Source: an uncultured Candidatus Saccharibacteria bacterium (lineage in GTDB: Bacteria; Patescibacteriota; Saccharimonadia; CAILAD01; JADZBC01). Taken from it: a DNA stretch of 64,000 nucleotides. A program made the position numbers and the translations under genes. Location: assembly GCA_964496815.1 (NCBI GenBank), contig CAZCAO010000001.1:17803-81802 (forward strand). Direction: 5' to 3'. Of this stretch, positions 20,098 to 64,000 are shown in pieces; the first letter of the stretch is position 1; every line of letters begins with the position of its first letter. The notes under the pieces were generated by a model, which ran no database searches, had not been told where the DNA came from, and saw nothing but the letters and a program-made list of their open reading frames with translations.

Positions 20098-21497
20098 AAA
20101 AATCATCTACAAATAAGAAATCACCGGCTCGGCATAACACTCCAATCTACATGCCACCTATGCCACGTCGTCAGCGCGCCAAGTCTCGTCATCGTTTGGC
20201 TAAGGCGGCGGGGTGGTTTGGTATCACCTTCGGCTTAATGGGTGTCGTGTATTTTTCTTACGCTGTTTTAATGGGGGGCAATACACCACAGAGCCGCAAT
20301 ATTCTCACTAGGCTCGTGAGCCCTCAGAGCCCGCAGCCAAAATTTGGCAAGATTTTGTTGACCGAGCCTGCAATTAGCTATGATACTAATGCCACCAAGG
20401 CGCTCATCTTCCAGGCCAACAAAGGCTATGTTCTGCCGGTTCAGACAGGCATTAGTAAGCAGGTGATTCGCTACACGTCGTCCGATGAAGAGGGTCGTGA
20501 GGTGCCAGTTTATGCACGTGTATATACACCTACCAGCCCTACGCCAAATAAGAATTTGCCGGTGTTTGCCTTCGCACCAGGGACTACTGGGATTGATGAC
20601 CGTTGTGCTGCGAGTTTGGAAAAACCAGCCGTTGCGAATTGGGCCAATTATGACTCACTGATGGCTGCTTATGCTGCGCAGGGTTACGCCGTGGTCATTA
20701 CAGACTATCAGGGCATGCGAGATCCCGATCGTATGCATCATTACATGATTGGGGCACAGGAGGGTCGAGCTGTTCTTGATAGCGTCCGAGCGCTCAAAAA
20801 CCTCCCAACTACCAAGGACACCATAGATAGTAAGAATATCTTCGTATCAGGCTATTCTCAGGGTGGGCACGCCGCTTTATGGGCCGATATGATAGCTGAT
20901 AATTATGCTCCGGAAATTGACCTGAAGGGCTTAGTCGGCTTTGGCCCCGTAAGCGACGTGCAGACAACTTTGGCTGACATTACCCGCGGGGCTAATATCA
21001 ACTGGTTTGGGCCATTTATCCTTACCTCTTATCAGGACTTTTATCGTACCAATTACAATTTAAGTTCTTTCTTGCTGCCGAAGTGGCAACAGAGTATCAA
21101 AACAGATATTGCCACGCAGTGTATTAATACCGTGATTCCACATTGGGGTAAAAATCCTGCAGCAATTTATCAACCGGAGTTCCTAGCCGCGCTGACACGA
21201 GGTGATCTGTCGGGTAATTATAGCGATCTGGCACGTGATCTGGCCAAAAATCGTGCTGGCACGGTCGCTACACCAACCGCCAAGCTTATTAACCACGGTC
21301 AGAAGGATAATGTAGTACTGCCAAGCCAATCCGAGGCTTTGAGACAACGCCTGTGCTTGATTGGCGGAGGTAGTTTGAGTGTTAAGTTGTATCCTACCGC
21401 GACGCATTACGATACGATGGCACAGAGTTTTAATGACACGATGAACTGGATGTCGGCGGTTCGATCCAATCAACCTCTGCCTTCAAGTTGCCAATGA
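20094..21497 (+). CDS. Membrane-anchored alpha/beta hydrolase (secretory lipase-like)
   Basis: 'VSGYSQGGHAALWA' GxSxG nucleophile elbow; N-terminal TM. Confidence 0.65.
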   Translation: MKKSSTNKKSPARHNTPIYMPPMPRRQRAKSRHRLAKAAGWFGITFGLMGVVYFSYAVLMGGNTPQSRNILTRLVSPQSPQPKFGKILLTEPAISYDTNATKALIFQANKGYVLPVQTGISKQVIRYTSSDEEGREVPVYARVYTPTSPTPNKNLPVFAFAPGTTGIDDRCAASLEKPAVANWANYDSLMAAYAAQGYAVVITDYQGMRDPDRMHHYMIGAQEGRAVLDSVRALKNLPTTKDTIDSKNIFVSGYSQGGHAALWADMIADNYAPEIDLKGLVGFGPVSDVQTTLADITRGANINWFGPFILTSYQDFYRTNYNLSSFLLPKWQQSIKTDIATQCINTVIPHWGKNPAAIYQPEFLAALTRGDLSGNYSDLARDLAKNRAGTVATPTAKLINHGQKDNVVLPSQSEALRQRLCLIGGGSLSVKLYPTATHYDTMAQSFNDTMNWMSAVRSNQPLPSSCQ

Positions 21498-42289: not shown

Positions 42290-42727
42290 CTACAGTTCCA
42301 GTTCTAGGCCGAACGCGGCCAGCTGGGCCTGTATGAACTCCACGCTACCTGCATCAAGAGAGGTAGTGTTGAGCAGGAAGGTGGCGCGATACTTCATCAG
42401 CTCGCCAACGGTGTTGATACCGGATTGGTTGCGCAAGCAAGCGGCCGTTCGAGTCCTCAGCAGCTGCGGAAACTCGCGTCCCTCATGCTTCAAATCCAGC
42501 AGGTCTTCGATGCTCATCTCGAGAATCTCGCGCATTTTACCGACGAGCTCGGTTGTGACGCGTATTTCCTCGACCTTGATGGTGGCCATCACGTCGAGAC
42601 CGAAGTAGGTGTCTTCTAGTCTCCTGATGGTCTCGAGGGCTTCCAGTATGGCACTGGGGCTCCCTGTGAGGACGAGTTGCACGTGTGCTTTGTGCGGTAC
42701 GACTTCGGTTCCTTCGATGTCGGGCAT
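42290..42727 (-). CDS. Stand-alone RNA polymerase alpha-subunit C-terminal-domain-like protein
   Basis: C-terminal 'LRTRTAACLRNQSGINTVGELMKYRATFLLNTTSLDAGSVEFIQAQLAAFGL' aligns with alphaCTD '[51 protein letters not shown]'; own promoter TTGACT..TATATT. Confidence 0.55.
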   Translation of the reverse strand: MPDIEGTEVVPHKAHVQLVLTGSPSAILEALETIRRLEDTYFGLDVMATIKVEEIRVTTELVGKMREILEMSIEDLLDLKHEGREFPQLLRTRTAACLRNQSGINTVGELMKYRATFLLNTTSLDAGSVEFIQAQLAAFGLELEL

Positions 42728-42830
42728 TGCTAGGGCCTTTTGTTCTCTGCGGGGCTACCGCAGCACATCCACGGTGGATGATTAGCAGATAATATAACAA
42801 AATTAGTAAAAAGTCAATATTCTTATTAAG

Positions 42831-42873
42831 AAAGGACCCCCGAACGAATCGGGGGTCCTTTCGTTCGGGGGTC
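42831..42873 (-). terminator. Intrinsic terminator, repeat-family copy 2
   Basis: AAAGGACCCCCGA-acgaa-TCGGGGGTCCTTT then CGTTCGGGGGTC. Confidence 0.7.
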
Positions 42874-42894
42874 GGATTGTTGGTGGCCGCTTGC

Positions 42895-43272
42895 TCAGCG
42901 GCCGAGGATGACCGTACAGGACGGATTGTCCTGGATCAGCCAGTCGCCGTCGTACTGCACCAGCTTGCCATCGCAGACCTTGCTGGTCTTGGAGCCGTCT
43001 GTCACGGTGTAGCGCACGGCCCTCTTCCAGACCGAGAGCTCGACCACGTGGATCTTGTCGTAGTGCGACTCGACCTCCGTCGTGACACGGGCATCTTCCT
43101 TGGCCCGGCTCTCATCCACGAGGTACATGCCATTGGCGAAGACCACGAAGATGACGGCCAGTACCCCGAAGGCGATGGCTGGCTTCCAGTGTTTCTTGGA
43201 GATCAGCAGGACACCGGTGGCGACTGCGAGCACTCCCGCCATCATCAGTGCGACGATTACTTCTGCGCTCAT
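42895..43272 (-). CDS. Hypothetical two-TM membrane protein with C-terminal soluble domain
   Basis: 125 aa; AAGGAGG RBS; own promoter TTGTAT-18-TAATAT; GC-rich codon usage. Confidence 0.5.
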   Translation of the reverse strand: MSAEVIVALMMAGVLAVATGVLLISKKHWKPAIAFGVLAVIFVVFANGMYLVDESRAKEDARVTTEVESHYDKIHVVELSVWKRAVRYTVTDGSKTSKVCDGKLVQYDGDWLIQDNPSCTVILGR

Positions 43273-43367
43273 GGCGCCTCCTTGTTCGGGGCCTCAGATT
43301 TAAGGCTGAAGGGTATATTAGCATATTATGCAATAAAAGTAAATACATACAAGGTTTTTGTGTAATA

Positions 43368-43413
43368 ACGAAAAGACCCCCGAACGAATCGGGGGACTTT
43401 TCGTTCAGGGGTC
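43368..43413 (-). terminator. Intrinsic terminator, repeat-family copy 3
   Basis: GAAAAGACCCCCGA-acgaa-TCGGGGGACTTTTC then GTTCAGGGGTC. Confidence 0.7.
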
Positions 43414-43426
43414 GGGCTGTGCCGGC

Positions 43427-43846
43427 TCAGCCGGAGGTGATGACCAGCCTGATGTCGGCGAAGGCATTGGTCAGCGCCTGCTCGAACTCGAGGTTCTCGC
43501 CGATTCCGTGGCCGAAGTGCTCTCGAACGTCGACGGCTCGGATCACCTCGGTCTCCTTGAGCACGCTCAGGGCGTGGTCGATGATCTGTGCCTTGAGCTT
43601 CTCCTGCGGATCGCTCCGCTTGGCGTCGATCAGGACCACACGGTTGTGCAGCTGGCTGAGCTTCTCGTGCTTCTCGTGGAGTCGGCCCTCGACGTTGATC
43701 ACTGCATGTTCTGCAAGGATCTGGAAGCGCCCAGAGGTCACGATGGTCTGGATCTGGCCATCGTCACCCGTGAAGCGCAGGCTTCCGTCGGGCATGGTGG
43801 CCAAGAGGCCTACCTGCAGGGCAGGCGTGGTTGCAGTTGCAGCCAT
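43427..43846 (-). CDS. Hypothetical soluble protein (139 aa)
   Basis: AAGGAG RBS 5 nt before ATG; own promoter TTGACT-16-TATAAT; GC-rich. Confidence 0.5.
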   Translation of the reverse strand: MAATATTPALQVGLLATMPDGSLRFTGDDGQIQTIVTSGRFQILAEHAVINVEGRLHEKHEKLSQLHNRVVLIDAKRSDPQEKLKAQIIDHALSVLKETEVIRAVDVREHFGHGIGENLEFEQALTNAFADIRLVITSG

Positions 43847-43970
43847 GTCAGTTCTCCTTGGTCGGTGGATGACTAAATAATTATATACTAAATCGAAAAA
43901 TAGTCAATGTATTGAGTGTTTTATATCAAGCCTACTTTCCGCTATACTGTTGTAAAGAAAAGGAGCCAGT

Positions 43971-49979: not shown

Positions 49980-50117
49980 GTGAGCGAAGTAGTAGATACA
50001 GTGGAGCAGCAGGAAAGCGTCAAAGTTGAGGCTGTCGAGCAAGAGCAAGATGACTTTCTGGCAGGTGTCCAGGCGGCGGATGCCGAAAGCTTTAATGTTT
50101 GCATATCTTGCGATTAA
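49980..50117 (+). CDS. Small acidic peptide (45 aa) ending in Cys-x-x-Cys
   Basis: GTG start 6 nt after AAAGGAGGTACGGAGG; sequence VSEVVDTVEQQESVKVEAVEQEQDDFLAGVQAADAESFNVCISCD; followed by terminator. Confidence 0.35.
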   Translation: MSEVVDTVEQQESVKVEAVEQEQDDFLAGVQAADAESFNVCISCD

Positions 50118-50121
50118 AAAA

Positions 50122-50160
50122 TCACAGGTAAAACAAATACCCCTACGGAAAATCCGAGGG
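50122..50160. terminator. Bidirectional terminator between peptide ORF and rpf-like gene
   Basis: ATACCCCTaCGG-aaaat-CCGaGGGGTAT followed by TTGCGTTTT. Confidence 0.55.
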
Positions 50161-50183
50161 GTATTTGCGTTTTAGCCTAGGGC

Positions 50184-50768
50184 TTAGAGCAAACCAAGCT
50201 TACGGGCACAGGCGGGCCATGGACTCCAGCCGCGGGCGGCTTGGGTTTCGCGCGCTTTAGCGTCCTGAACTTCAGGAGGTGCTAAGTGCGGATAGGCGTA
50301 ACCACCATAGTTGGCCCAGGTACCGAGGTTGTACTGGTAGGCGCCATAGTAACCGTTGCCCGAGTTGCGGGTATAGTCACCACCGGCTTCACAAAGGCGC
50401 AATTGCTCCCAGACGTCACCAGTCGCAACACCGATTTTTCGGTTCGATTGGTCGTCGATCTGTGCACTAGCCAGTGTAATCTGTACTGCCTGAGCAGCTG
50501 CAACCTTGGCTTCAGCTTCGGCTTGAGCCTTGGCGGCTTGAGCAGCCTTGATCGGAGCCATGACTTCTTGGTCGAAGTCGGGCTTCTGGGCTACAAGCTC
50601 TACAGCCTGAGGCGAATTTGTATTGATGTTTAGATTGTATGTTACTTTTGGTCTACTTACAGCTTGGGCGGCAGCCTCGGCTGTAGCGGTGGCGGGAATG
50701 TGTAGGGGGTTGGCCACCTGGGTTGCAAATAGTACTGCTACTATGAGCGATTGGATGTGTTTATACAT
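50184..50768 (-). CDS. Secreted resuscitation-promoting-factor (Rpf)-like transglycosylase
   Basis: Signal peptide; 'WEQLRLCEAGGDYTRNSGNGYYGAYQYNLGTW...RGWSPWPACARKLGL' aligns with Rpf domain '[27 protein letters not shown]...QGWGAWPLCSQKLGL'. Confidence 0.8.
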   Translation of the reverse strand: MYKHIQSLIVAVLFATQVANPLHIPATATAEAAAQAVSRPKVTYNLNINTNSPQAVELVAQKPDFDQEVMAPIKAAQAAKAQAEAEAKVAAAQAVQITLASAQIDDQSNRKIGVATGDVWEQLRLCEAGGDYTRNSGNGYYGAYQYNLGTWANYGGYAYPHLAPPEVQDAKARETQAARGWSPWPACARKLGLL

Positions 50769-50934
50769 GTGTATCTACGTATAGATACCCTCCTAAACTA
50801 CGTCCTTTTCCTAGTTAATGCTCCGCCCTAAAAATTTGGGCATTCGCGCACTTGGCTTAGAAACAAAAACGACCGTATTAAGGTAATCCTAACAGGTCGA
50901 GAGATATCTAAAATCAAGTGAACGCAGCTATATT

Positions 50935-50963
50935 AGCATGACGTAAGCACTTTGTCAAGCATT
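50935..50963 (-). promoter_or_regulatory. sigma70-like promoter for rpf-like gene
   Basis: Minus strand TTGACA-17-TAATAT. Confidence 0.45.
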
Positions 50964-51004
50964 TTGAAGCACTTTTTACCACCTAAAGAAAAGACGAATT
51001 TTTG

Positions 51005-51300
51005 TAAAAAAAGAACCACCTTGGCTATGAAGGTGGCAACGTAGCCTGGGAGGGGGTGGAATCCTCCCAGGCTACGCGAGCATTGACGAGGTGTGTCCCC
51101 CTCTTGCACACCTGACTGCTCTGGGGCGAAGTGACAGGGGCTGAGGGCCCGAAGCAGGAGGCCTGGCCTGGTGCCCATCAGCGGGTGTAAAGCGCTATCG
51201 ATGGGTGGGGCCTTTGCTCCGGGCCGACAGCTGTCGACTCTACGTTGAGTCGACTGAGGCGGTTTCCCCTGGTTTCCTCTAGCCAGATGGCTTGGTTGTC
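51005..51300 (-). ncRNA. GC-rich structured RNA with intrinsic terminator upstream of rpf-like gene; candidate ydaO-type c-di-AMP riboswitch
   Basis: Minus-strand RNA contains GGGGAAACCGCC, CCCGGAGCAAAGG, CCCCACCCAUCGAUAG blocks and several perfect hairpins; ends in CCACCTT..AAGGTGG + U7 terminator; possible promoter TTGACA-16-TAGAAT at ~51415-51448 (minus). Confidence 0.35.
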
Positions 51301-51479
51301 ACGAGCTTCTGAGCTTCGTCGGTTAGGTTTTTATCCAGCTCCTGCGTCTGGTCCGAACGAACTGTTTTGGAGAAGCTTGTGAAACGAGGCCGTTTGGCTT
51401 GAGTTGGTTTTATTCTACTCCGCTTACGTTTCGTGTCAACGCTTTTTTCGCGCCCAGGGTACTGCTATACTGGTAAGAT

Positions 51480-53264
51480 ATGAGAGACATCATTAAGATT
51501 ATTCGTTACTCCTGGAAGCTCTGGCGTTATTACCTATCAATTGCTTTTTTGGTCATCGTAGTAGCCTTGCTTGGTCTGGCTTCGCCGTTCTTGGTCAAGA
51601 TGATTGTAGACGGCTTGGTGGCAAACAGCTCCGGCGGTAATTATCAGGTAGGCTACTTTATAGTTATCGTTGCCCTTATCTTATTGAGCGACGTAGCGGG
51701 GACGATCATTTCGAACATCAATGGCCACCTGGGGGACATGATGTCTGTTAAACTCAACACATTGCTGAGCCAGCGCTATTACGATCACCTCATGTCATTG
51801 CCAATTGAATACTATGACAATGAAATCACCGGCAAAATCACGGCACGCTTAGAGCGTACGATTGGCACGATTAGCACGCTCATGCAGACCATGGCCAACA
51901 ACTTTGCCCAATTCTTCCTGACAACACTTATCACACTAGTATTTATTAGTATTTACTCCTGGCCAGTTGCGCTGCTGCTCATCGTGATTTTTCCTACCTA
52001 TATTTACATTACGCAGCTGTCGAGTCGGCGTTGGCAGCACGCACAGGAGGGCATCAATCAAGACCTAGATGTGGCGAACGGGCGTTTTGTTGAATCAGTT
52101 GGACAGATTAGGGTTGTCAAATCATTTGTAACTGAGGCTATGGAATCAGCATTCTTCCGTGGTAAGCGACGCAGCATTGAAGACCAGACCAAAGGCCAAT
52201 CTATAGTTTGGCATAAATACGACGTAGCCCGTAGGCTAGTGCTCAACGTCGTTTTTGCTTTGATCTACTGTTTTATTACTTGGCAGGCGTTCAAAGGGGA
52301 AATTACGCTTGGCGAATTCACCTTGCTATTGCAGCTTGTAACACAGGCTCAAATGCCGCTATTTGGCTCGTCATTCATTGTAGACGCTCTGCAGCGCGCT
52401 AAGGCGGGAAGTAAGGATTATTTTGGCGTTATGGCTCTTGAGCCAAGCATTAGTGATCAGGCTGATGCTAAGCCACTGAAGGTTAGCCGCGGTAAGGTAA
52501 GTTACCAGGCAATTTCGTTTGGCTATAGCCAGGGTAAGCAAGTTCTGAATGACATTAGCTTTGATATAGAGCCAGGACAAAAGATCGCGTTGGTGGGCGA
52601 GAGTGGTGAGGGTAAGAGTACGATTGCTAACATCATGCTACGCTTTTACGAGCTTGATGGTGGACGGATTCTGATCGACGACAAGGATATTAGCCAGGTT
52701 ACCCAGACGAGTCTGCGCAAGAACATTGGCGTGGTTTTCCAGGAGCCTGCCTTGTTTTCTGGCACCATCGCCGAAAACATAACATATGGTAGCGGCAAGG
52801 TGTCACGACAAAAGTTAGAGGCTGCGGCGAAGGCCGCTAACGCCCTCGGCTTTATTAAAAAACTCGAACATGGCTTTGATACTCAAATAGGCGAGCGTGG
52901 TGTGAAGCTGTCGGGTGGTCAAAAGCAGCGTATTGCCATCGCTCGGGCAATCCTCAAGGATGCCCCAATTCTTATTCTTGATGAGGCTACGAGCTCGCTG
53001 GATAGTAAGGCTGAGCGGGAAGTGCAAACAGCACTTGAGCGGCTCATGCAGGGGCGCACCACAATGATTATTGCTCACCGTTTGAGCACGATTGCTAACG
53101 TCGATGCAGTAGTCGGCATCCGTGGTGGCAAGATTGTAGAGATGGGCTCACCTGCCCAGCTGGCAAAAGGCAATGGTATTTATGCAGAGCTCCTAAGGCT
53201 ACAATCTGGCGCGGCAACCAAAGCTACCAAGGCTAAGCTTAAACAATTCGAGATCGTTAAGTAG
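51480..53264 (+). CDS. ABC exporter, fused permease/ATPase (MsbA-like)
   Basis: 6 TM + Walker A 'GESGEGKST', 'LSGGQKQR', 'ILILDEATSSLD'. Confidence 0.9.
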   Translation: MRDIIKIIRYSWKLWRYYLSIAFLVIVVALLGLASPFLVKMIVDGLVANSSGGNYQVGYFIVIVALILLSDVAGTIISNINGHLGDMMSVKLNTLLSQRYYDHLMSLPIEYYDNEITGKITARLERTIGTISTLMQTMANNFAQFFLTTLITLVFISIYSWPVALLLIVIFPTYIYITQLSSRRWQHAQEGINQDLDVANGRFVESVGQIRVVKSFVTEAMESAFFRGKRRSIEDQTKGQSIVWHKYDVARRLVLNVVFALIYCFITWQAFKGEITLGEFTLLLQLVTQAQMPLFGSSFIVDALQRAKAGSKDYFGVMALEPSISDQADAKPLKVSRGKVSYQAISFGYSQGKQVLNDISFDIEPGQKIALVGESGEGKSTIANIMLRFYELDGGRILIDDKDISQVTQTSLRKNIGVVFQEPALFSGTIAENITYGSGKVSRQKLEAAAKAANALGFIKKLEHGFDTQIGERGVKLSGGQKQRIAIARAILKDAPILILDEATSSLDSKAEREVQTALERLMQGRTTMIIAHRLSTIANVDAVVGIRGGKIVEMGSPAQLAKGNGIYAELLRLQSGAATKATKAKLKQFEIVK

Positions 53265-54186: not shown

Positions 54187-57100
54187 ATGCGACGCGCAGC
54201 AGAGCGTGGTCGTACTGTATTTGTTCGTACTAAAATCCCGCATCACGCTAAACGTGCTCGCGTAGTGGTAGCTGCGCATGCCAGGCGCGCCCATAGTGCG
54301 ACGTTGGGCAGGGCCCATTCGCACTTGGTCACTAGAGTGCCGATGTATAGCAAGTGGCATGGCTGGAAGCACCATAAACATGTTCATCACGGTGTTTTGG
54401 CGGCCGTCTTGGTGGCTGGAACTCTAAATATTTTATTATTCCGCTCGGCTTTTGCCCTTTCGGATATTACTCAGTTGTGGAACTTTTCTAGCCAGTCTGA
54501 CTACACGCTGTCAGATACCAATGCACTGGAATATAGCGGCAATAGTGTGCGCCTAAAAGCCCAGAATTATACGAGTGACGCTAATACCATGGCCCTGTAC
54601 CATCTGGATGAATCAAATGGCACTTCGGCAAGTGACGATTCAAGTAATAACAATACAGGCTTGCTAGCTAATGCGCCGGCGTGGGGAGCTGGGAATCTCA
54701 ACAATGCCCTTACCCTAAACGGCACGAACCAAAGTGTTAGTGCAGCCGATTCAAGCTCGCTTTCGCTTTCGCAGAGCAATAGTTTAGAGGCTTGGTCAAA
54801 GTTAGGTTCTAGCTTTTCGGCCAATTCTCAGCAGAACGACCAAGTGATTATGGATAAGGGTAGTTATAAACTCTATTATGATCACGAGACTGGTAAGCCA
54901 ACCTATGAGCTAGAGAACTCGTCGGCTACAAGCTGGACTCCGCAGGCGGGTAACGGCCAGAATAACAGTTGGAATACCTCTGGCCCGACCGCTACAAAAG
55001 CATCAGTCGTTCACGATAACAATCTATACATTGGCACAGCAGGCGGCGCAGGTTACGCTCAAGTTTGGGGCTATACAGGTTCAGCTTGGACTAAAATTGG
55101 CGGTGATGGCATAAACTCAGGCTGGGCAGCAAACACGTATGAGGAGGTCGACTCCCTTACTTCAGATGGAACATATCTATATGCTGGCCTCGGTACAACT
55201 ACAGGTGATGGTGAGGTGTGGCGTTGGAATGGTTCTAGCTGGAGCAAAATTGGAGGTGATGGCATAAACTCAGGCTGGGCAGCAGCTACCTATGAGTCTG
55301 TGGCTAGCATGACATATATGGGGGGTAATCTCTACGCCGGGCTAGGTGCAAGTGGAGGTGACGGCGAGGTATGGAAATGGAACGGAACGAGCTGGACTAA
55401 GATTGGCGGCGACTCAATTAACTCTGGTTTTAATATCGGAACTGTCGTAAGCCTTGCGAATGATGGAACGTACGTTTATGCCGGCACAGGTACTGCTGCA
55501 GGAGATGCCGATGTCTGGAGATGGGACGGCGCAATTTGGACCCAGCTCGGCGGCGATGGACTAAACTCAAGTTGGGCGGCGGGCACCTATCAGCAGGTGT
55601 TAAGTATGTTTGTACAGGGCGGACAGTTGTATGTTGGTACGGGTGCCGGCACGAGCTTGGGTGAAGTTTGGAAGTGGAGTGGTAGTGCTTGGGCCAGGCT
55701 GGCTAGTAGCGGAACGGGATTCCCGGCAGCCACGTATGAGGGTGTATGGAGTATCACGGGCGACGGAACTAATCTTTATGTTGGCACTGGCAATAGTCAG
55801 AATGACGGTGATGTATATAAATACAACGGTTCTACATGGTCGCAAATCGGTGGTGACGCCCTAAGCTCTGGTTGGACGCAGGGATACATCGTCTATTCAC
55901 TTACTTGGTTCAACGGAAAACTTTATGCCGATGCGACTCAAGCTTCCAGTGGCGATGTCTTTTACTCTTGGAATGGTTCTGCTTGGACGCGTGAAGGTGG
56001 TATGTACTATGGTGGTAGTTGGGGAATGATTAATCTCAATAGTGTGCGGTCTATGACAACTGCCAACGGCAAGTTATATGCTGGCCTTGCAGGGAATTCC
56101 AACGCCAGCGTGTTTGAATACACAGGATCAGCTTGGCGGATTATTGGTGCGCCTGGGCTTAATTCCGCCTGGGGCGTGAGCCAAATTAGCGAGGTTAATG
56201 CCATGACATCAATGGGGGGACAGCTATATATCGGCACAAGTGGCGGGCAGAATGGTGATGCGGAATTGTGGCGTTGGAATGGCACGAGTTGGGCTCAGGT
56301 AGGCGGCGATGGCATAAATTCAAGCTGGAATGGTTCTTATACACGTATTTATGCAATGGCATCAGATGGTACCAATCTTTATGCCGGGGTCGGTTCCACC
56401 GGAGGCAATGGTGAAGTGTGGCGCTATTCGGGCTCAACCTGGACGCGGATAGGCGGCGCAGGGGCCAACGGTAGCTGGAATGGAACTTACCGAAATATAT
56501 ACTCTTTAGTCGTTTCGGAGGGAAATCTTTATGTAGGTAGCTATGGATCAACCAATAATAGTGCCGATGTGTGGAAGTGGAATGGGTCAAGCTGGACTCA
56601 AATTGGTGGCGATGGATTGAATTCCGGTTGGAATTTCAGCTCTATAGGTAATGGTGAGGTTGGTTCGCTCGCAGTTTATGGTAATAAGTTGTATGCAGGG
56701 ATAGGCTCTCTAAGCGCTGGAGATGCCTCGGTTTGGTCTTGGGATGGAGCTGCCTGGACCAAGGTGGGGGGCGATGACGTTAATGGCAGTTGGACGACCA
56801 GCACCTATGAACGTGTCGCTAGTATGGTTGTATATAACGGCCAGCTTTATGCCGGCCTGGGTTCAACAGGCAGTAATGGCGAACTCTGGCGTTATAATGG
56901 TTCAACCTGGACGCAAGTCGGCGGCGACAGTCTCAATGGCGGCTGGAGTTCGTCGATTGAAAGCGTGCGCTCTCTAGCGGTCTATAAAGGTAAGCTTTTT
57001 GCGGGTCTTGGTGACACTCAGAATTCGGATGCCCTGATTTATTCGTATGGTAATAATGGCTTCCTGCAGGGTTCTACAAGCAGTTTCGACACTGCTTGGC

Positions 57101-60100
57101 GGCATATCGCGGCGACATACGACGGTAGCACGATGAAGCTGTATATTAATGGCGCACTTGATGCTTCGGGCGCAACTTCTTTATCGATGCCCGACACAAA
57201 TACCAGCCTCTATATTGGGCGATCGTATGGCACGCAGGGTTCGAGTGGGAATCAAGCATACTATAACGGCAGTTTAGATGAGATTCGTATTAGCAATAGC
57301 GTTCGAACGAGTTTTACATCGAAACCCTATACTGCCAGTCGGGTGGGTGTTCGACTCACTAATCCAGTTTATACGAGCGGCATTGCCAGTTGGGATGGTT
57401 TGGCGAGTAGTTATAGCGCCGATGGTGGCAGTGTGCTGTTTAGACTTTCTATAGACGGCGGAACAACCTGGCGATATTGGGATGGCTTTGCTTGGCAAAC
57501 GTCAGCGGGGCTAGAACAGGCAAACGCAATTGCCGATATTAACGCCAATATACCCTCGATTGGAGTTACATCGGGAGGGATTGTGTGGCAAGCTGTGTTA
57601 CAGGGCGATGGCAATCAGCGTCCATCGATAAGCTCGACTACCCTAACTGCCACAGCGGACACAACTGCCCCTGGTCAAAACGCGGCTAATACCATTATGA
57701 AGACGTCTCCTACCGGAGCGACGGTTGCCGAAGGGGCCTGGACCAATGCGGCCACACCGTACTTTAGTTGGGATGCCGCAATCGACACCCAGTCGACAAT
57801 TAAGGCATATTGCCTCTACCTGGGCCAGTCAAACAGTGATGACCCTCTGACGTCGAAAGGTCTGCTCGGTACGAGTCCGATTGACCTGACAAATACTTGC
57901 CCATTTGCCGTTTCAGGGCAGGACCTTGATCTTGCCACGAATGGGTTGTTGGCGAGTGTGCTGACAAGTTCTTCGAACCCATATTATCTAAACATTAAGG
58001 CAATTGATAACGCTGGCAATGTTGCGGCTAATAGTGAGCAATTTTCATTCCGCTATGATGGAATCGTCCCATCAAACCCCCTCTTCGTTTCCACTCCGTC
58101 GCAATTTGTGGCCAACAAGCAGGTGACGATTACCTGGCCGACCGTCGGGGGAGATGCGGCGCTTGATCAGCATTCCGGGGTTGTAGGCTTGCAATATCGC
58201 ATTGGTACCAATGGTACTTGGTATGGCGACAGTCATACCGGTGCGCAAGACAGTACTGATCTGCTGGCAAACGACGGTAGTTATCAGACGATTGATCCAA
58301 CTGACTTTGATACCTTGCAGGATGGTAATAATACCGTTTACTTTAGGACCTGGGATGCGGCGGGCAATGTGTCGAATGCATATGTTACTGGCGTGATTAA
58401 GATAAATACATCATCACCTTCTGTTCCCCAGAATTTATCAGCTACACCGACGACAAATACGACGAATAGCTTTGCCTTTGATTGGCTCGCGCCGGCTAGT
58501 TTTGGCGGTTCAGCGGCTAACTTAACGTACTGTTATACAATAAATACTCTGCCTTCAGCTAACACGTGTAGCTTCACGGCTGCCGGCGTAACGAATTTGA
58601 TTGCCAACGCTTATGCCACGCAGCCAGGAGCCAACACGATGTATGTGGTAGCTAAGGATGAGGCGGGTAATATAAATTATGCCACTTATGCCTCGGTTAC
58701 CTTTACGGCCAACACGTCAGCGCCTGGACTGCCGCTCAATGCAGATATCGCCGACATCAGCGTCAAGGCTACATCAAATTGGAAGTTGGCAGTATCTTGG
58801 GAAGAGCCAACTGACGTCGGAGCAGGTGTTGCTCAATATCGAGTCTATCGATCTGTCGACGATATTACCTATACGCAGATAGCGAGTACCTCGGGTGCTA
58901 GCTATGTTGACACCGGCCTTTCTCCAATACGGTATTACTATAAAGTTAAAGCCTGCGACTCTGCTAATAACTGCGGCGCCACGACGCTGCAGGTTAATCA
59001 AAAGCCAACAGGTAAATTTACTACCCCTGCTAGCTTGGTTTCTGATCCGGTCGTGTCTGACGTGAGTACGCGACGAGCTACCGTGAGCTGGTCGACTGAT
59101 CGTGATAGTGATAGCCGTATTCAATTTGGCAAAAGTTCTGGTAACTACTTTGCTACAGAAGTCGCAAGCTCTGCACAGACCACGAGTCACAACATAACGA
59201 TTAACAATTTAACCTCGGGAACAACCTATTATGCTCGTGCTCGCTGGACCGACGAGGACGGCAACATCGGTACTTCTGAGGAGTTTATGTTTAGTACCAG
59301 TCCAGCACCGACAGTCAAAGAAGTAACCAATAAACAGATTGGACTTGGTAGTGCTACAGTCCAATTTACATCCAAGGAGGCCACCAAGGTCAAGGTGCTT
59401 TATGGTAAATCAGAGAGTTTTGGCGGGGCGCAGGAGATTAATACAGCCACGCAAGAATCTACTTACACGACCGTGCTATCGAACTTAGAGGATGGTACGA
59501 AGTATTACTATAAGCTCAACACCTATGATAGCGAAGATAATGAGTATGAAGGCAATGTCTACTCGCTTACAACTCCTGCCCGACCTCGTATTAGCAACCT
59601 GCGCTTCGAGCCAGTTGAAGGCGAGCCTACAAGTACGCAGCGGGTCTCGTGGACTACCAACGTACCGACAAGCTCCGAGGTAAGCTACGGCGCGCAGGGT
59701 CAGTCATCTCAAGAACAGTTAGACAGTCAATTAACCCTTGATCACAGCATTGTGATTCGCGGCCTGACTGATGATAGCATATATTCCCTGGTTGCACGTT
59801 CTCGAGATAGCCAGGGCAACGCCGCAGTAAGTGAGACGCAGACATTCCGTACCGCACTAGACACCCGTCCGCCGAAGATAAGTAGCGTTGTGGTCAAAAG
59901 TGCGGTGCGTGGTAGCGGGGCCGATGCACGGGGACAAGTTATTGTAAGCTGGCAGACTGATGAGCCGGCAACCAGCCAAGTGGCGTTTAGTCAGGGCTCT
60001 TTGGGCGGGGAGTTGGCTTCAAGGACCGCAGAAGACGCAAAGTTGGTTACCGACCACCTAGTGATCGTATCTGACCTGACCCCGTCGAAGGTCTACCAAG

Positions 60101-60237
60101 TTCAGGCTTTATCGAAGGATCGTAGTAGTAATCCGGCGAAATCACTCGATCAAACAACAATTGTTGGTAAGGCTCCAGCCAGTATTTTTGACATCGTATT
60201 TAAAACGCTACAGAGCATATTTAGCTTTGTAAAATAG
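54187..60237 (+). CDS. Giant cell-surface protein: N-terminal anchor, LamG-like domains, ~18 tandem ~55-aa beta-propeller-type repeats, C-terminal FN3-like domains
   Basis: 2016 aa; repeats 'GDGEVWRWNGSSWSKIGGDGINSGWAA..Y..V.S......LYAG'; LamG-like 'LYHLDESNGTSASDDSSNNNTGLL...'; FN3-like 'ATVSWSTDRDSDSRIQFG'; true start possibly internal (MYSKWHGW...). Confidence 0.85.
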   Translation: MRRAAERGRTVFVRTKIPHHAKRARVVVAAHARRAHSATLGRAHSHLVTRVPMYSKWHGWKHHKHVHHGVLAAVLVAGTLNILLFRSAFALSDITQLWNFSSQSDYTLSDTNALEYSGNSVRLKAQNYTSDANTMALYHLDESNGTSASDDSSNNNTGLLANAPAWGAGNLNNALTLNGTNQSVSAADSSSLSLSQSNSLEAWSKLGSSFSANSQQNDQVIMDKGSYKLYYDHETGKPTYELENSSATSWTPQAGNGQNNSWNTSGPTATKASVVHDNNLYIGTAGGAGYAQVWGYTGSAWTKIGGDGINSGWAANTYEEVDSLTSDGTYLYAGLGTTTGDGEVWRWNGSSWSKIGGDGINSGWAAATYESVASMTYMGGNLYAGLGASGGDGEVWKWNGTSWTKIGGDSINSGFNIGTVVSLANDGTYVYAGTGTAAGDADVWRWDGAIWTQLGGDGLNSSWAAGTYQQVLSMFVQGGQLYVGTGAGTSLGEVWKWSGSAWARLASSGTGFPAATYEGVWSITGDGTNLYVGTGNSQNDGDVYKYNGSTWSQIGGDALSSGWTQGYIVYSLTWFNGKLYADATQASSGDVFYSWNGSAWTREGGMYYGGSWGMINLNSVRSMTTANGKLYAGLAGNSNASVFEYTGSAWRIIGAPGLNSAWGVSQISEVNAMTSMGGQLYIGTSGGQNGDAELWRWNGTSWAQVGGDGINSSWNGSYTRIYAMASDGTNLYAGVGSTGGNGEVWRYSGSTWTRIGGAGANGSWNGTYRNIYSLVVSEGNLYVGSYGSTNNSADVWKWNGSSWTQIGGDGLNSGWNFSSIGNGEVGSLAVYGNKLYAGIGSLSAGDASVWSWDGAAWTKVGGDDVNGSWTTSTYERVASMVVYNGQLYAGLGSTGSNGELWRYNGSTWTQVGGDSLNGGWSSSIESVRSLAVYKGKLFAGLGDTQNSDALIYSYGNNGFLQGSTSSFDTAWRHIAATYDGSTMKLYINGALDASGATSLSMPDTNTSLYIGRSYGTQGSSGNQAYYNGSLDEIRISNSVRTSFTSKPYTASRVGVRLTNPVYTSGIASWDGLASSYSADGGSVLFRLSIDGGTTWRYWDGFAWQTSAGLEQANAIADINANIPSIGVTSGGIVWQAVLQGDGNQRPSISSTTLTATADTTAPGQNAANTIMKTSPTGATVAEGAWTNAATPYFSWDAAIDTQSTIKAYCLYLGQSNSDDPLTSKGLLGTSPIDLTNTCPFAVSGQDLDLATNGLLASVLTSSSNPYYLNIKAIDNAGNVAANSEQFSFRYDGIVPSNPLFVSTPSQFVANKQVTITWPTVGGDAALDQHSGVVGLQYRIGTNGTWYGDSHTGAQDSTDLLANDGSYQTIDPTDFDTLQDGNNTVYFRTWDAAGNVSNAYVTGVIKINTSSPSVPQNLSATPTTNTTNSFAFDWLAPASFGGSAANLTYCYTINTLPSANTCSFTAAGVTNLIANAYATQPGANTMYVVAKDEAGNINYATYASVTFTANTSAPGLPLNADIADISVKATSNWKLAVSWEEPTDVGAGVAQYRVYRSVDDITYTQIASTSGASYVDTGLSPIRYYYKVKACDSANNCGATTLQVNQKPTGKFTTPASLVSDPVVSDVSTRRATVSWSTDRDSDSRIQFGKSSGNYFATEVASSAQTTSHNITINNLTSGTTYYARARWTDEDGNIGTSEEFMFSTSPAPTVKEVTNKQIGLGSATVQFTSKEATKVKVLYGKSESFGGAQEINTATQESTYTTVLSNLEDGTKYYYKLNTYDSEDNEYEGNVYSLTTPARPRISNLRFEPVEGEPTSTQRVSWTTNVPTSSEVSYGAQGQSSQEQLDSQLTLDHSIVIRGLTDDSIYSLVARSRDSQGNAAVSETQTFRTALDTRPPKISSVVVKSAVRGSGADARGQVIVSWQTDEPATSQVAFSQGSLGGELASRTAEDAKLVTDHLVIVSDLTPSKVYQVQALSKDRSSNPAKSLDQTTIVGKAPASIFDIVFKTLQSIFSFVK
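55050..57040 (+). repeat. Tandem intragenic repeats (DNA and protein level)
   Basis: e.g. 'ggtgatggcataaactcaggctgggcagca' occurs near-identically at ~55095 and ~55257. Confidence 0.7.
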
Positions 60238-60247: not shown

Positions 60248-61018
60248 ATGCAATATTTGATTGAATTTAAAAACGTAGAAAAGAGCTTTGAGGTAGAAGA
60301 GCGCCAAGTTCCAGTATTGCATGATATCAATTTGGCCATCAAGCCGAATTCGTTTGTTATTGTGTATGGCCCTTCGGGCAGCGGCAAAAGTACATTGCTT
60401 AACATCATGATGGGCCTAGAGCCTCCTACGAGAGGGTCTGTACGCATCGACGGCCAAGAGATTTATAACGAGTCCGCCCGTTCACGAGCACTCTATAGGT
60501 CAAAAAATCTAGGGGCTATTTATCAGTCAATGTACTGGATAAAAAGCCTTTCGGTAATTCAAAACGTAGCGCTACCACTTATGTTGGCGGGCCAGACTCG
60601 TGCTCAGGCGCAAGCTACTGCAATGCAAAAGCTTAAGCTCGTTGGTATGGACAAGTTTTCACGTTATGCGCCCAGCTTGCTATCGGGTGGTCAGCAGCAA
60701 AGGGTCGCTATGGCAAGGGCTTTGGTTTCTGAGCCATCAATTCTGGTAGCAGATGAGCCAACGGGCAATTTAGATAGTAAGACAGGAGATGAGGCCATGC
60801 GTCTGCTGCATAATTACCACAAATCAAGCGGCTGTACGATTATACTTGTTACGCATAACTTAGAATATCTCTCAATGAGCAAAGAGCGTTATTACATGCA
60901 GGATGGACGTCTAAAGCAAGATAGGGATATGCACACCGAGCATGTCAGCCGACTTGTAAGCCAAATGCGCAACCGTCTTGATCGAAACCAAGCAGGGCCC
61001 GAAAGGAAAATGCAGTAA
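60248..61018 (+). CDS. ABC transporter ATP-binding protein (MacB/FtsE-type)
   Basis: Walker A 'GPSGSGKSTL', 'LSGGQQQR', 'LVADEPTGNLD'. Confidence 0.85.
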   Translation: MQYLIEFKNVEKSFEVEERQVPVLHDINLAIKPNSFVIVYGPSGSGKSTLLNIMMGLEPPTRGSVRIDGQEIYNESARSRALYRSKNLGAIYQSMYWIKSLSVIQNVALPLMLAGQTRAQAQATAMQKLKLVGMDKFSRYAPSLLSGGQQQRVAMARALVSEPSILVADEPTGNLDSKTGDEAMRLLHNYHKSSGCTIILVTHNLEYLSMSKERYYMQDGRLKQDRDMHTEHVSRLVSQMRNRLDRNQAGPERKMQ

Positions 61019-62268
61019 TGCTGAGTAGAGTTAAACGTGTATTGCCAAACAGGAAGGGTGAAAAAGGTCAGCCGCGCCTAAGTTTCTTGCTGTCGATGGC
61101 ATTGAGTAACTTGCGCTTCAAAAAACTCCGTACCTCGCTGACTGTTGCAGGGGTGGTCATTGGTATTGGATCAATCGTATTCTTGGTATCACTTGGCATG
61201 GGTTTACAGAACTTAGTTACCAAACGAGTTGTCAGCTCTGATTCGGTAAGGACAATCGAGGTGACAACACCCGACCCTACGCTGGTTAAGCTCAACGATC
61301 GTGCAGTTGATCAGTTTAGGAACTTTGGTTCGTTTCTAAACGTAACGCAAATCTATTCTTACCCTGGCAATATCAGTGCCGATGCTGCTCTTACGGACAG
61401 TGTCGTGTATGGTATCGATAGTGCTTACACTAAAGTTGTATTACCCCAAAAACTAGCAGGTGATGTCGTGAAAGATCTCGGACCGAATGATGTGGTTATA
61501 GGGAGCTCTTTATTGCAGCCACTTAACATTAGCTCTGCCCAAAAGGCAATAGGTAAGGCAATTAAGATAAGCATAGTCGTGCCGGATGTTCAGGGTCAAA
61601 CTAAAGCAGGCAAGACGGTAATGCAGGAGTTCGTCATCCGTGGAGTAGTGGAGAGTGGTGCTGGGACTGACGTCTATATCAGTCAAAGGATTTTTAAGGA
61701 CCTCAGTTTAGGAGAGTACGAGCAGGTTAAGCTAGTAGTAAAAGAACAGAGCGCTACTCCCGATATTCGCAAGCGTATTGAGGCGCTCGGTTTTGCGACA
61801 GCCTCGCCTATAGACACATTGCAGCAGATCAATCAGCTTTTCACCTTCTTTAACTTCATTCTCGCCGGCTTTGGTAGTATTGGTATGCTAATCGCGGTTC
61901 TAGGCATGCTAAATACCCTAACTATTTCCCTTTTGGAGCGAACGCAAGAAATTGGCTTGATTGTGTCACTTGGTGGAACTGAGACCGACATAAAAAAGCT
62001 ATTTGTATCCGAATCTCTAATCCTGTCAGTTGCAGGCGGCGCTTTAGGGATTTTGATGGCCTATGGCGGCGGCGGAGTTATCGATCTAGCTCTCAACGGT
62101 TTAGCTAAGCGCCAAGGCTTGACTGAGGAATTCAGTTTGTTCTCGTTACCTTTAACTCTGATTGTAGCCGTTGTAGTATTCATGATAGTGGTTGGCTTGG
62201 CAGTCGTTTATATTCCGGCACGTCGTGCTGCGCGCATTAATCCGATTATTGCCCTGAGAAGAGAGTAG
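61018..62268 (+). CDS. ABC transporter permease, FtsX/MacB-like
   Basis: N-terminal TM, extracytoplasmic domain, C-terminal 3-TM FtsX module; ATGA-type overlap. Confidence 0.85.
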   Translation: MLSRVKRVLPNRKGEKGQPRLSFLLSMALSNLRFKKLRTSLTVAGVVIGIGSIVFLVSLGMGLQNLVTKRVVSSDSVRTIEVTTPDPTLVKLNDRAVDQFRNFGSFLNVTQIYSYPGNISADAALTDSVVYGIDSAYTKVVLPQKLAGDVVKDLGPNDVVIGSSLLQPLNISSAQKAIGKAIKISIVVPDVQGQTKAGKTVMQEFVIRGVVESGAGTDVYISQRIFKDLSLGEYEQVKLVVKEQSATPDIRKRIEALGFATASPIDTLQQINQLFTFFNFILAGFGSIGMLIAVLGMLNTLTISLLERTQEIGLIVSLGGTETDIKKLFVSESLILSVAGGALGILMAYGGGGVIDLALNGLAKRQGLTEEFSLFSLPLTLIVAVVVFMIVVGLAVVYIPARRAARINPIIALRRE

Positions 62269-62880: not shown

Positions 62881-64000
62881 ATGTCAGCATCACGTCAAGT
62901 GGTTTTCCTCTTCAACGAGGGGGATGAAGCCACCAGGACCCCTGCGTTTCGTGGGGGTAAGGGTGCAGGTTTGGCGGATATGGTGGCTCTCGGGCTGCCC
63001 GTTCCACCAGGCTTCACCATTGCTACCTCGGTTGCACGTGCATTCGCCGAAACCGGTCAGCTGCCCAAGCGGCTTGAAGGCCAGATTCGGCGGTCGATGC
63101 GCGTGATCGAGAAGTTGACCGGTCAGAAGTTTGGCGACACCGCGAGCCCCTTGCTGGTTTCGGTGCGCTCCGGCGCTCCCGTTTCCATGCCCGGCATGAT
63201 GGATACCGTCCTGAATGTCGGCTTGCGAAGGGAGATGCTTGGTTCACTCGAAAGTGCCAGCGGTCGAGAGTTCGCTGATGACACTTACGAGCGGTTCCTG
63301 CGTCAGTTCGGTTCTGCCGTTCTGGACCTTCCAGTCCAGGATGATCAGTTGCTCATCAAGGAGTCCGAAGGTCTTGTACCCGAAGATCCCTATGAGCAGC
63401 TGATGATGGCGATCCGAGCAGTCCTGCTTTCCTGGAATAGCGAGCGTGCTCGCACGTATCGCGACAACCAGGGGATCCCGCATTGGTGGGGAACTGCGGT
63501 AACCATTCAGGCAATGGCCTTTGGTAACCGAGATGATCAGTCGGCTACTGGTGTGGTGTTTAGCCATGACGTCAACACCGGCGCAGAGGTTCTCACCGGA
63601 GAATTCCTTGTTCGCGCCCAGGGTGAAGACATCGTGAGCGGCACCACGACGCCACAGTCGATCAATCGCATGCAGGCATGGAATCCGCAGCTCTACCAGG
63701 AGCTGCTGAACAGTGTCAGGCTGCTCTCTGATCATCTTGACAGCATGGTTGATGTCGAGTTCACCGTGGATAACGGCAAGCTCTTCATCCTCCAGGTTCG
63801 TCGTGCTACCCGTACGCCCCACGCCGCGGCTGCGTTCGCGGTTCGCCGAGTGTGGAGCCAGCGGTGGACGCACGTCGAGGCTGTCACGAGCCTCAGTGAA
63901 GCCGAACTCGAACAGCTCGAGGACGGTCAGGCCATGATGGAAGGAGATTCTACGCAACTGATTGCTGCCGGTATGCCCGCCTCGAACGGATGTGCTGTTG
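62881..64000 (+). CDS. ppdK: Pyruvate, phosphate dikinase (N-terminal part; runs off window end)
   Basis: Open frame from ATG at 62881 (AGGAGG 6 nt upstream) to window end; 'GGKGAGLADMVALGLPVPPGF', 'FGDTASPLLVSVRSGAPVSMPGMMDTVLNVGL' match PPDK N-terminal nucleotide-binding domain; absent from ORF track because no stop in window. Confidence 0.85.
   Translation, partial: MSASRQVVFLFNEGDEATRTPAFRGGKGAGLADMVALGLPVPPGFTIATSVARAFAETGQLPKRLEGQIRRSMRVIEKLTGQKFGDTASPLLVSVRSGAPVSMPGMMDTVLNVGLRREMLGSLESASGREFADDTYERFLRQFGSAVLDLPVQDDQLLIKESEGLVPEDPYEQLMMAIRAVLLSWNSERARTYRDNQGIPHWWGTAVTIQAMAFGNRDDQSATGVVFSHDVNTGAEVLTGEFLVRAQGEDIVSGTTTPQSINRMQAWNPQLYQELLNSVRLLSDHLDSMVDVEFTVDNGKLFILQVRRATRTPHAAAAFAVRRVWSQRWTHVEAVTSLSEAELEQLEDGQAMMEGDSTQLIAAGMPASNGCAV

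Follow-up and report, generated by a model that had tools for sequence, protein, structure and literature searches.

Does a resuscitation-promoting factor (Rpf) encoded by a bacterium that lives on Actinobacteria come from its host? Saccharibacteria (TM7) are ultrasmall parasites or epibionts of Actinobacteria. The question is raised by a gene on the reverse strand, at 50184..50768 of a 64,000-nucleotide stretch of contig CAZCAO010000001.1 from an uncultured Candidatus Saccharibacteria bacterium (this whole stretch is hereafter called the window). Rpf enzymes have long been described as an actinobacterial hallmark (PMC1084345), and an original prediction, made from the sequence of the window, had proposed that this rpf-like gene was either acquired from an actinobacterial partner or host or used to remodel the host's peptidoglycan. 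Taken as a whole, the observations are best explained by a native and long-resident gene of a Saccharibacterium that would encode an exported, leader-regulated lytic transglycosylase of the Rpf type, a reading given a probability of about 0.7.

Catalytic domain and protein anatomy

The rpf-like coding sequence begins with ATG in the list of open reading frames (ORFs) and specifies 194 amino acids. The Pfam family PF06737 ('Transglycosylase-like') matched residues 115-187 over positions 2-77 of the 77-position profile (E=1.2e-18; 68 bits against a gathering score of 27), and was the sole Pfam family with E<0.1 on the protein. In the same Pfam scan neither the Sps/YabE 3D-domain nor the SLT (PF01464) catalytic domain was matched, and DUF348 and G5 domains were likewise not found, which places the protein outside the RpfB type (K21688). 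The closest solved structures were those of Mycobacterium tuberculosis RpfB, RpfC and RpfE (E=3e-17 to 5e-11), in agreement with the Rpf-type domain that had been predicted here. Cys126 and Glu127 align with the 'CEAGG' motif of RpfB and Cys187 with its second cysteine; read in the DNA, the codons for Glu127, Cys126 and Cys187 lie at 50388-50390, 50391-50393 and 50208-50210, respectively. These three residues and the GNGYYGAYQ motif of the substrate groove were invariant in all 59 aligned family members, and Cys126 and Cys187, the only cysteines in the protein, are a predicted disulfide pair. A residue-for-residue match had been claimed at the conserved tryptophan, the catalytic glutamate and the paired cysteines. 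It holds for the glutamate and both cysteines, but the tryptophan that follows 'GGN' is replaced by Tyr132 (GGDY).

The catalytic domain is of a 'GNGYYGAYQY...QD' subtype with a loop four alignment columns shorter than that of RpfB. Scores against the NCBIfam Rpf and RpfC equivalogs (NF046106, NF046107) were 65.7 against a cut-off of 180 and 52.3 against a cut-off of 200, a similarity at the level of the domain only. Because these scores fall far below the cut-offs, the window protein is taken to contain an Rpf domain and not to be an orthologue of Micrococcus luteus Rpf or M. tuberculosis RpfC. Judged by its homologies and conserved residues, the window gene encodes a genuine Rpf-type peptidoglycan-cutting enzyme. 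It is a further case of a known kind of enzyme, and automatic annotation already captures such proteins.

An AlphaFold2 model was built from the 59-sequence family alignment (mean predicted local distance difference test score, pLDDT, 67; predicted template modelling score, pTM, 0.38), with values of about 53-88 per 10-residue block in the catalytic part. When this model was compared with the PDB using Foldseek, only the catalytic domains of RpfB, RpfC and RpfE were matched (probability 0.96-1.00), with target-normalised template modelling scores (TM-scores) of 0.49-0.67 for single-domain Rpf chains. The predicted secondary structure ahead of the catalytic domain comprises strands at residues 44-48 and 56-60 and a helix at residues 65-100. 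This region includes a module at about residues 40-80 for which no Pfam match was found. The linker that follows has pLDDT <50 at residues 102-114 and varies in length within the family. At the N-terminus, the Kyte-Doolittle maximum in a 15-residue window is 1.93 (family mean 1.88), the hydrophobic core spans about 15 residues, and one basic residue stands ahead of the core in most family members. The n-region, the core and the AxA motifs are conserved across the family, with Q17 nearly invariant. The protein is probably secreted, and hydropathy and motifs suggest that the signal-like segment is cleaved.

Descent within Saccharibacteria

Loci that share the gene order and encode a protein 90-94% identical belong to metagenome-assembled genomes (MAGs) of Candidatus Saccharibacteria or Patescibacteria. 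The source organism is a Saccharibacterium and no actinobacterium, the latter as originally predicted. The immediate neighbours of the rpf-like gene are housekeeping genes, namely those for histidyl-tRNA synthetase, BipA/TypA, a Rel/SpoT homologue, a PQ-loop protein and an ATP-binding cassette (ABC) exporter. The order Rel/SpoT, PQ-loop, rpf, ABC exporter is retained in the homologous loci L001-L005, although no PQ-loop match was found in L004 and L005, and on the short contig of L006 only Rel/SpoT is kept beside rpf. In relatives at 55-62% identity the ABC exporter still adjoins rpf.

The G+C content (GC) of the rpf-like gene is 54.5%, compared with the originally stated value of about 57%; that of the window is 49.1% and the mean for window genes is 49.2% (standard deviation, sd, 3.4). 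The excess is confined to codon positions 1 and 2, since the protein is rich in alanine, glycine, proline and tryptophan. The comparison of GC at third codon positions (GC3) that had been suggested gave a native result, 0.518 for the rpf-like gene against 0.501 (sd 0.061) across 51 window ORFs. When genes were ranked by the log-likelihood of their synonymous codon choice under the pooled usage of the other window genes, the rpf-like gene came 39th among 49, counted from the most atypical. In 40-odd Saccharibacteria loci the GC3 of homologues ranged from 0.25 to 0.82 and tracked a local genome GC of 0.36-0.62; the Actinomycetota homologues had GC3 values of 0.62-0.98, mostly above 0.78. Ratios of nonsynonymous to synonymous substitution (dN/dS) against six relatives (L001-L006) were 0.03-0.18, indicating purifying selection.

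A search for the family returned 739 matches. The best 120 clusters of these were mostly near-full-length proteins of about 165-235 amino acids, down to 47% identity, and the few that carried names were Saccharibacteria transglycosylase family proteins and one entry labelled Parcubacteria. The genome matches L001-L032 were nearly all from Saccharibacteria. Actinomycetota matches mainly covered the catalytic domain, a few extending into the alanine-rich linker, and in the genome search no actinobacterial protein matched the module at residues 40-80. Three homologues (L007, L049 and P0168; full-length or domain matches) come from contigs that bear the labels 'Candidatus Parcubacteria', 'Candidatus Nanoarchaeia archaeon' or 'Candidatus Woesebacteria'. 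Mis-binning or mislabelling of Saccharibacteria contigs is the probable reason; should the labels be right, the family extends past Saccharimonadia.

Three Rpf architectures occur in Saccharibacteria: the short form seen in the window, an RpfB-like form of about 380-410 amino acids (DUF348-G5-PF06737) and a LysM-PF06737 form. A neighbour-joining tree of the catalytic domains was computed from 83 columns and 75 distinct sequences with 500 bootstraps. It contained a clade of 33 domains (32 from Saccharibacteria and one unnamed) that includes all three architectures, with 75% bootstrap support. The window domain is 69-72% identical to the nearest Saccharibacteria RpfB-like and LysM-type domains (L029, L031, L030), at most 62% identical to the Actinomycetota domains in the set, and 46% identical to that of M. 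tuberculosis RpfB. Since most catalytic domains of the three forms fall in one clade, the short form is best read as a derivative that arose inside the lineage. That most Saccharibacteria Rpf catalytic domains, whatever their architecture, form one clade, RpfB-like genes with the ancestral ksgA neighbourhood among them, is a modestly new point.

The rpf-like gene is accordingly a long-resident gene, vertically inherited in Saccharibacteria, and no recent import from a host. A deep lineage-specific clade (neighbour-joining tree) together with native composition (GC3 and codon usage) is what the original prediction had itself named as evidence against acquisition. The deep origin may lie in vertical descent from a monoderm ancestor or in an ancient transfer between phyla, as an exchange with Actinomycetota. 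The further claim that the domain is characteristic of Actinobacteria is outdated: PF06737 is widespread in Saccharibacteria and has been reported for Lactobacillus plantarum MltA-C (PMC3533731), so that the domain is not strictly actinobacterial. A tempting but wrong story of gene transfer from host to parasite is thereby removed, and Saccharibacteria are seen to hold an Rpf repertoire (short, RpfB-like and LysM-Rpf) as old native genes, without the cyclic di-AMP (c-di-AMP) riboswitch.

The RpfB-like paralogues have a conserved context of their own. In five of the nine loci checked (L029, L031, L034, L040, L064) rsmA/ksgA follows the RpfB-like gene, three of the downstream ORFs being confirmed as PF00398, and UvrD/PcrA-like and methionyl-tRNA synthetase genes lie near it in some loci. 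The supplement of PMC10633639 records such a gene in Southlakia epibionticum: SEML1_0667 (PF07501, PF06737 and two PF03990; KEGG K21688) is immediately upstream of SEML1_0666 (RsmA) and was non-essential at all three time points of transposon sequencing. The annotation table for this organism contains a single PF06737 protein, the short form being absent (PMC10633639 supplement). An rpfB/spsB-ksgA context has long been known from Actinobacteria and Firmicutes (PMC1084345; PMC6009663). This suggests that the rpfB-ksgA neighbourhood is an ancient arrangement common to monoderm lineages, one that predates, or was exchanged beyond, Actinobacteria. One RpfB-like protein, used as a query, gave 3163 matches, of which the best 120 all had the three-domain architecture, and JGI names some of the matches 'resuscitation-promoting factor RpfB'. 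Such database names mean that Rpf proteins in Saccharibacteria have already been recorded by automatic annotation. In the literature no paper was found on Rpf, RpfB or resuscitation-promoting factors in Saccharibacteria, TM7 or Patescibacteria; the sole RpfB match was an unrelated protein of that name from diffusible signal factor (DSF) quorum sensing.

Separate from the clade described above are three LysM-Rpf proteins from Saccharimonadales (L059, L062, L065). Their domain is of the canonical 'CESGGNW...FYGG.QF' kind, is 74% identical to an actinobacterial sequence, and clusters with canonical Rpf domains including that of M. tuberculosis RpfB (bootstrap 93%). In L062 and L065 the GC of the gene is 7-10 points above that of the locus. 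These three are better candidates than the window gene for a later transfer from Actinobacteria to Saccharibacteria.

The true compositional outliers of the window are at 42290-43880 and 63244-63957. The first includes ORFs at 42290-42727, 42895-43272 and 43427-43846 (all on the reverse strand) within a stretch of 53-56% GC, with a GC3 of about 0.70 for 42290-42727. This ORF had a weak RNA_pol_A_CTD match in Pfam, and the ORF at 42877-43365 (forward strand) had none. The last 1 kb of the window has a GC of 58.6% and an unconvincing ORF of 237 amino acids with a GC3 of 0.67 and no Pfam match. Both stretches may represent a foreign islet or mis-called frames.

Transcription unit, leader and neighbourhood

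The features of the rpf-like gene and its transcript are collected in Table 1.

Table 1. Features of the rpf-like gene, its product and its transcription unit, in window positions.
Feature	Position	Strand	Basis and remarks
rpf-like coding sequence	50184..50768	-	Stop codon TAA at 50184-50186; Met1 start supported by the family alignment
N-terminal signal-like segment, residues 1 to ~28	50685..50768	-	Basic n-region with K3 (consensus MR/K), hydrophobic core IQSLIVAVLFATQVA, then P-x-T...A-T-A/A-E-A motifs
Lineage-specific module, residues ~40-80	50529..50651	-	Consensus NYxLxLNT...PxFDxxVLxPLxAAQA; invariant P72 and Q77; in the model, a beta-hairpin leading into a long helix
Ala/Gln/Lys-rich helical linker and low-confidence connector, residues 81-113	50430..50528	-	Composition; AlphaFold2 helix to residue 100
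Rpf/PF06737 lysozyme-like catalytic domain, residues 114-194	50187..50429	-	Pfam, solved-structure matches, Foldseek; Glu127, Cys126, Cys187
Promoter-like TTGACA-17-TAATAT with TG extension	50930..50958	-	10 of 12 consensus matches; ~155 nt upstream of the gene
Nested stem-loop at the 5' end of the leader	50845..50924	-	Outer stem around inner hairpin 50870-50899, then U-run 50861-50869
Shine-Dalgarno AGGAGGG (50788-50794) and 7-bp hairpin GTATCTA/TAGATAC (50770-50787) before ATG	50770..50794	-	Sequence and fold
Bidirectional intrinsic-terminator-like hairpin TACCCCT...AGGGGTA	50130..50173	both	T-runs on both strands; read by eye; unlisted by a simple scanner

The promoter-like sequence is conserved, spacer bases GCTTAYG included, upstream of homologues in distant Saccharibacteria; among 29 homologous loci, a pattern search located it in 27, and inspection by eye in the remaining two. 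A motif search of the window for a regulon found no site other than that of rpf. The U-run that follows the inner hairpin of the leader reads UUUUUGUUU, and hairpin and U-run together look like an intrinsic terminator, making the nested stem-loop a candidate terminator-like attenuator. The 165-nt stretch 50760-50924, which comprises the 156-nt leader and the first 9 nt of the coding sequence, folds at -43.1 kcal/mol (z=-2.2), and the first 85 nt of the leader have z=-6.0. For the first 85 nt of the 27 leaders with pattern-placed promoters, the mean z against dinucleotide shuffles was -2.9, with z<-2 in 21 of the 27. Compensatory changes were seen in both the outer and the inner stem among close relatives. 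The arrangement of Shine-Dalgarno sequence, hairpin and AUG recurs with other sequences upstream of distant homologues (L007, L016, L020-L025). At the other end, the terminator-like hairpin closes the rpf-like transcript, and the gene is therefore monocistronic. Two groups of ORF calls were rejected as genes: an 81-amino-acid ORF at 50933..51178 (reverse strand), which spans a terminator and the rpf promoter, and ORFs overlapping within the rpf coding sequence, which are shadow frames of a conserved coding sequence.

No Rfam family was found in the leader of the window gene or in the intergenic region upstream of it at gathering score, and a search of 50700-51550 at E up to 10 gave only chance-level matches to microRNA and small nucleolar RNA families. 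The c-di-AMP riboswitch (RF00379, ydaO) was found upstream of rpf in six of 12 Actinomycetota loci and in none of 11 Saccharibacteria loci. In the six positive loci (L041, L050, L052, L055, L056, L067) it lies directly upstream of the Rpf-domain gene, at about 5640-5970 of each locus, with 44-55 bits. Mechanical ORF calls ran through the riboswitch in these high-GC loci, and Actinomycetota protein lengths are therefore overestimated there. Actinobacteria are known to control rpf genes through the leader: rpfA by a ydaO riboswitch, and rpfB of M. tuberculosis by an RNA switch based on a terminator (PMC6009663). The Saccharibacteria leader, for which a regulatory function is suggested by its structure, appears to be a different solution from the actinobacterial c-di-AMP riboswitch. 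A second modestly new point is that, in the short form, a conserved structured leader of its own takes the place of this riboswitch.

Two further small elements flank the gene. Between the ABC exporter and the rpf promoter, a possible structured RNA of about 400 nt, itself unannotated, occupies 51008-51406 on the reverse strand, with no credible ORF. It has its own promoter-like site at 51439..51412 (11 of 12 consensus matches) and a terminator-like stem at 51037..51015. The minimum free energy of the unit is -169 kcal/mol (z=-7.3 against shuffles), and a perfect 14-bp hairpin lies at 51040-51076. The core of the unit, GCUGUCGGCCCGGAGCAAAGGCCCCACCCAUC..., shows conservation in L001-L004, including some compensatory pairs, and no Rfam match was found at E up to 10. 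Convergent with the rpf-like gene is a 45-codon ORF at 49981-50118 (forward strand) with a GTG start and AAAGGAGG 8 nt upstream. Its acidic, unannotated product has the C-terminal end ...DDFLAGVQAADAESFNVCISCD; the last 21 residues are nearly invariant in L001-L006 and the N-terminal half is variable. It resembles either a conserved micro-protein or a precursor peptide that has CxxC at its C-terminus. In L004 (5461-5577, forward strand), and at the homologous position in L005, an insertion at the structured-RNA region carries an ORF of 38 amino acids (MQITKFNHFYFAGTVTSDTSAGLQFISPIASGTCEDCG) that also ends in CxxC, and no significant similarity was found between it and the micro-ORF of the window.

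Elsewhere in the window are genes for FtsA, FtsZ, FtsW/RodA (a SEDS protein) and a ligase of the LytR-CpsA-Psr (LCP) kind, from which it follows that the cell makes its own wall. The originally listed FtsA is thus present; the pilin-like proteins listed with it were unconfirmed, and a strict regular-expression scan for the type IV prepilin motif found no match in the window. A 2016-amino-acid protein with Laminin_G_3/ConA-like and fn3/purple-acid-phosphatase-N domains is encoded at 54187-60237 (forward strand), ahead of a MacB-type ABC pair at 60248-62268 (forward strand), and a secretory-lipase (PF03583) protein is encoded at 20094-21497 (forward strand). These are candidates for a surface or host-interaction toolkit of an epibiont.

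Alternatives, target and comparison with known systems

As proposed here, the signal-like segment would take the protein across the membrane via Sec, and the beta-hairpin and long helix of the lineage-specific part may serve for spacing or docking. Homology to M. tuberculosis RpfB, RpfC and RpfE suggests that the catalytic domain would cut the MurNAc-GlcNAc (N-acetylmuramic acid-N-acetylglucosamine) backbone of peptidoglycan via Glu127, with a Cys126-Cys187 disulfide stabilizing the domain. Transcription would start at the strong conserved promoter and would probably be gated after initiation by the structured leader, composed of a 5' nested hairpin (often with a U-run) followed by the Shine-Dalgarno sequence, its hairpin and the AUG.

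Several points weigh against this reading. Bootstrap support is low inside the Saccharibacteria clade, the Actinomycetota are also poorly resolved, the tree has only 83 columns, and its Actinomycetota sample is skewed to the nearest relatives of the query. The confidence of the AlphaFold2 model, at the mean pLDDT and pTM given above, is moderate, and the N-terminal segment could be an uncleaved membrane anchor. The activity and substrate of the window protein are predicted from homology, and the regulatory role of the leader is proposed from structure and conservation. One subclade (L008, L009, L013, L017-L019) keeps the nested stem without the U-run. A covariance model of the leader made from seven close relatives strongly recovered only its seeds, with L016 and L025 found weakly (E=0.3-0.6); it is too sequence-specific for distant leaders, and folding z-scores for each leader were used instead. 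Finally, the division between the cell's own wall and the wall of the host as the target, considered below, is a judgement and no result.

A recent horizontal transfer from an actinobacterial partner or host would account for several observations: outside Saccharibacteria the catalytic domain has its closest relatives in Actinomycetota (53-62% identity), the gene is 5 GC points over the window average, and cultivated Saccharibacteria live on Actinobacteria (PMC10633639). It is nevertheless very improbable, since the GC excess lies only at codon positions 1 and 2 while GC3 and codon choice are native, homologue GC3 follows each Saccharibacteria genome over a range of 36-62% GC, synteny is kept over deep divergence, dN/dS is low, the Saccharibacteria domains group together at 75% bootstrap, and the module at residues 40-80 is unmatched in actinobacterial proteins. 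A route through phage was rejected as well: PF06737 copies in phages (actinophages or unannotated faecal phage contigs) are only 36-44% identical, further away than the cellular Actinomycetota. Equally hard to sustain is a catalytically dead or wall-binding protein in which the Rpf fold serves as a peptidoglycan-binding module. The loss of the first cysteine in relatives L045 and L049 ('RARESGG') indicates that the scaffold tolerates change, but in the window gene and all 59 family members Glu127, both cysteines and GNGYYGAYQ are invariant, and the low dN/dS also argues against a dead enzyme.

An active enzyme might instead be directed at the host, opening actinobacterial peptidoglycan at the epibiont-host contact so as to attach, to let pili or a secretion system through, or to take up nutrients. 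This role is tentative. It would suit a protein predicted to be exported and, by homology, muralytic, in a lineage whose cultivated members have actinobacterial hosts (PMC10633639); lytic transglycosylases have been proposed as breachers of the host envelope in Patescibacteria (PMC11665869), up to three Rpf architectures are kept in small genomes, and the long helical spacer of the model could hold the domain off the cell. Southlakia does not need its RpfB-like paralogue in co-culture, which makes that copy, at least, dispensable for the cell's own growth. Non-essentiality does not discriminate, however, because the rpf genes of M. tuberculosis are dispensable in vitro and yet act on the cell's own wall (PMC2229633). 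No feature of the sequence specifies a host target, the organism has its own peptidoglycan machinery, glycan-strand cleavage is needed by every walled bacterium, the RpfB-like paralogue stands in a housekeeping rpfB-ksgA context, and the short form is absent from the cultivated Southlakia, with its one annotated PF06737 protein. Alternatively, secreted Rpf or the anhydro-muropeptides that it releases could mimic a signal, stimulating or waking dormant actinobacterial hosts and so providing an active host. Rpf proteins promote growth and resuscitation in Actinobacteria (PMC1084345), cultivated Saccharibacteria have Actinobacteria as hosts (PMC10633639), and the culturability of environmental bacteria is reported to rise in response to M. 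luteus Rpf and to 1,6-anhydro-MurNAc, its putative product (PMC10569661). Signalling is quite unlikely all the same, as the proposal is pure inference, the catalytic domain is of the diverged 'YYGAYQY' subtype and not canonical, and the housekeeping context of the family points to a role at the own wall.

For the enzyme read as a native lytic transglycosylase, about half of the weight is placed, as a judgement, on the cell's own wall as the target (growth, division and room for envelope machines), somewhat under a third on the wall of the host where the cells attach, and the remainder on both or on signalling. The own wall is slightly favoured because of the cell's own wall machinery, the rpfB-ksgA housekeeping context of the paralogue, and the action of actinobacterial Rpf proteins on the wall of the cell that makes them (PMC2229633). 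A more far-reaching idea, that Saccharibacteria, as obligate epibionts, keep a private and separately regulated Rpf arsenal for use on hosts, as a port in the wall or as a 'wake-up' mimic that would let the parasite feed on a growing cell, with the short form, by virtue of its promoter strength and attenuator-like leader, as the deployable effector and the RpfB-like form beside ksgA as housekeeping enzyme, is regarded as doubtful. In either case these proteins are concrete candidates for the handling of peptidoglycan, own or host, by ultrasmall epibionts, and since SEML1_0667 is non-essential and is found in a genetically tractable strain (PMC10633639 supplement), the question can be tested there.

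Among known systems, the catalytic domains of M. tuberculosis RpfB (PDB 3EO5, 1XSF, 4EMN, 5E27), RpfC and RpfE have the same PF06737 lysozyme-like fold as the window protein. For RpfB, the structural alignment gave 42% identity and a target-normalised TM-score of 0.67, with the Cys-Glu pair of 'CEAGG' and the C-terminal cysteine aligned. The M. tuberculosis proteins are exported, and the window protein is predicted to be so as well. RpfB differs in having DUF348 and G5 domains, both lacking in the window protein, and in belonging to another phylum. Its motifs GGNW, YYGGVQF and QI correspond to GGDY, YYGAYQY and QD in the window protein, in which the loop is four columns shorter. The L. plantarum enzymes MltA, MltB and MltC, likened here from their description only, are secreted PF06737 hydrolases that act on the own wall of a non-actinobacterial monoderm (PMC3533731), and their accessory domains differ.

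The nearest relatives outside Saccharibacteria, at 53-62% identity, are the 'YYGAYQF' Rpf proteins of Actinomycetota (Frankia, Pseudofrankia and MAGs of Actinomycetes or Actinomycetota; L041, L050, L052, L055, L056, L067). They share the short loop and the YGAYQ and QD motifs with the window protein, and both groups of genes have a structured 5' leader. The flanking protein regions are non-homologous, and the leaders differ in kind: the Actinomycetota genes have RF00379 immediately upstream, resembling the regulation of RpfA, whereas the window and 11 Saccharibacteria loci have none and carry an unrelated, promoter-proximal nested hairpin. Closer still are the RpfB-like proteins of Saccharibacteria, such as SEML1_0667, which belong to the same phylum-level lineage; the nearest of their catalytic domains (L029 and L031, 69-72% identical) fall in the clade of the window domain, and an N-terminal export signal is predicted for both kinds of protein. 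At about 380-410 amino acids, with ubiquitin-like and G5 domains and a position upstream of rsmA/ksgA, they are distinct from the window gene, which is a short paralogue at another locus with an N-terminal module of its own.

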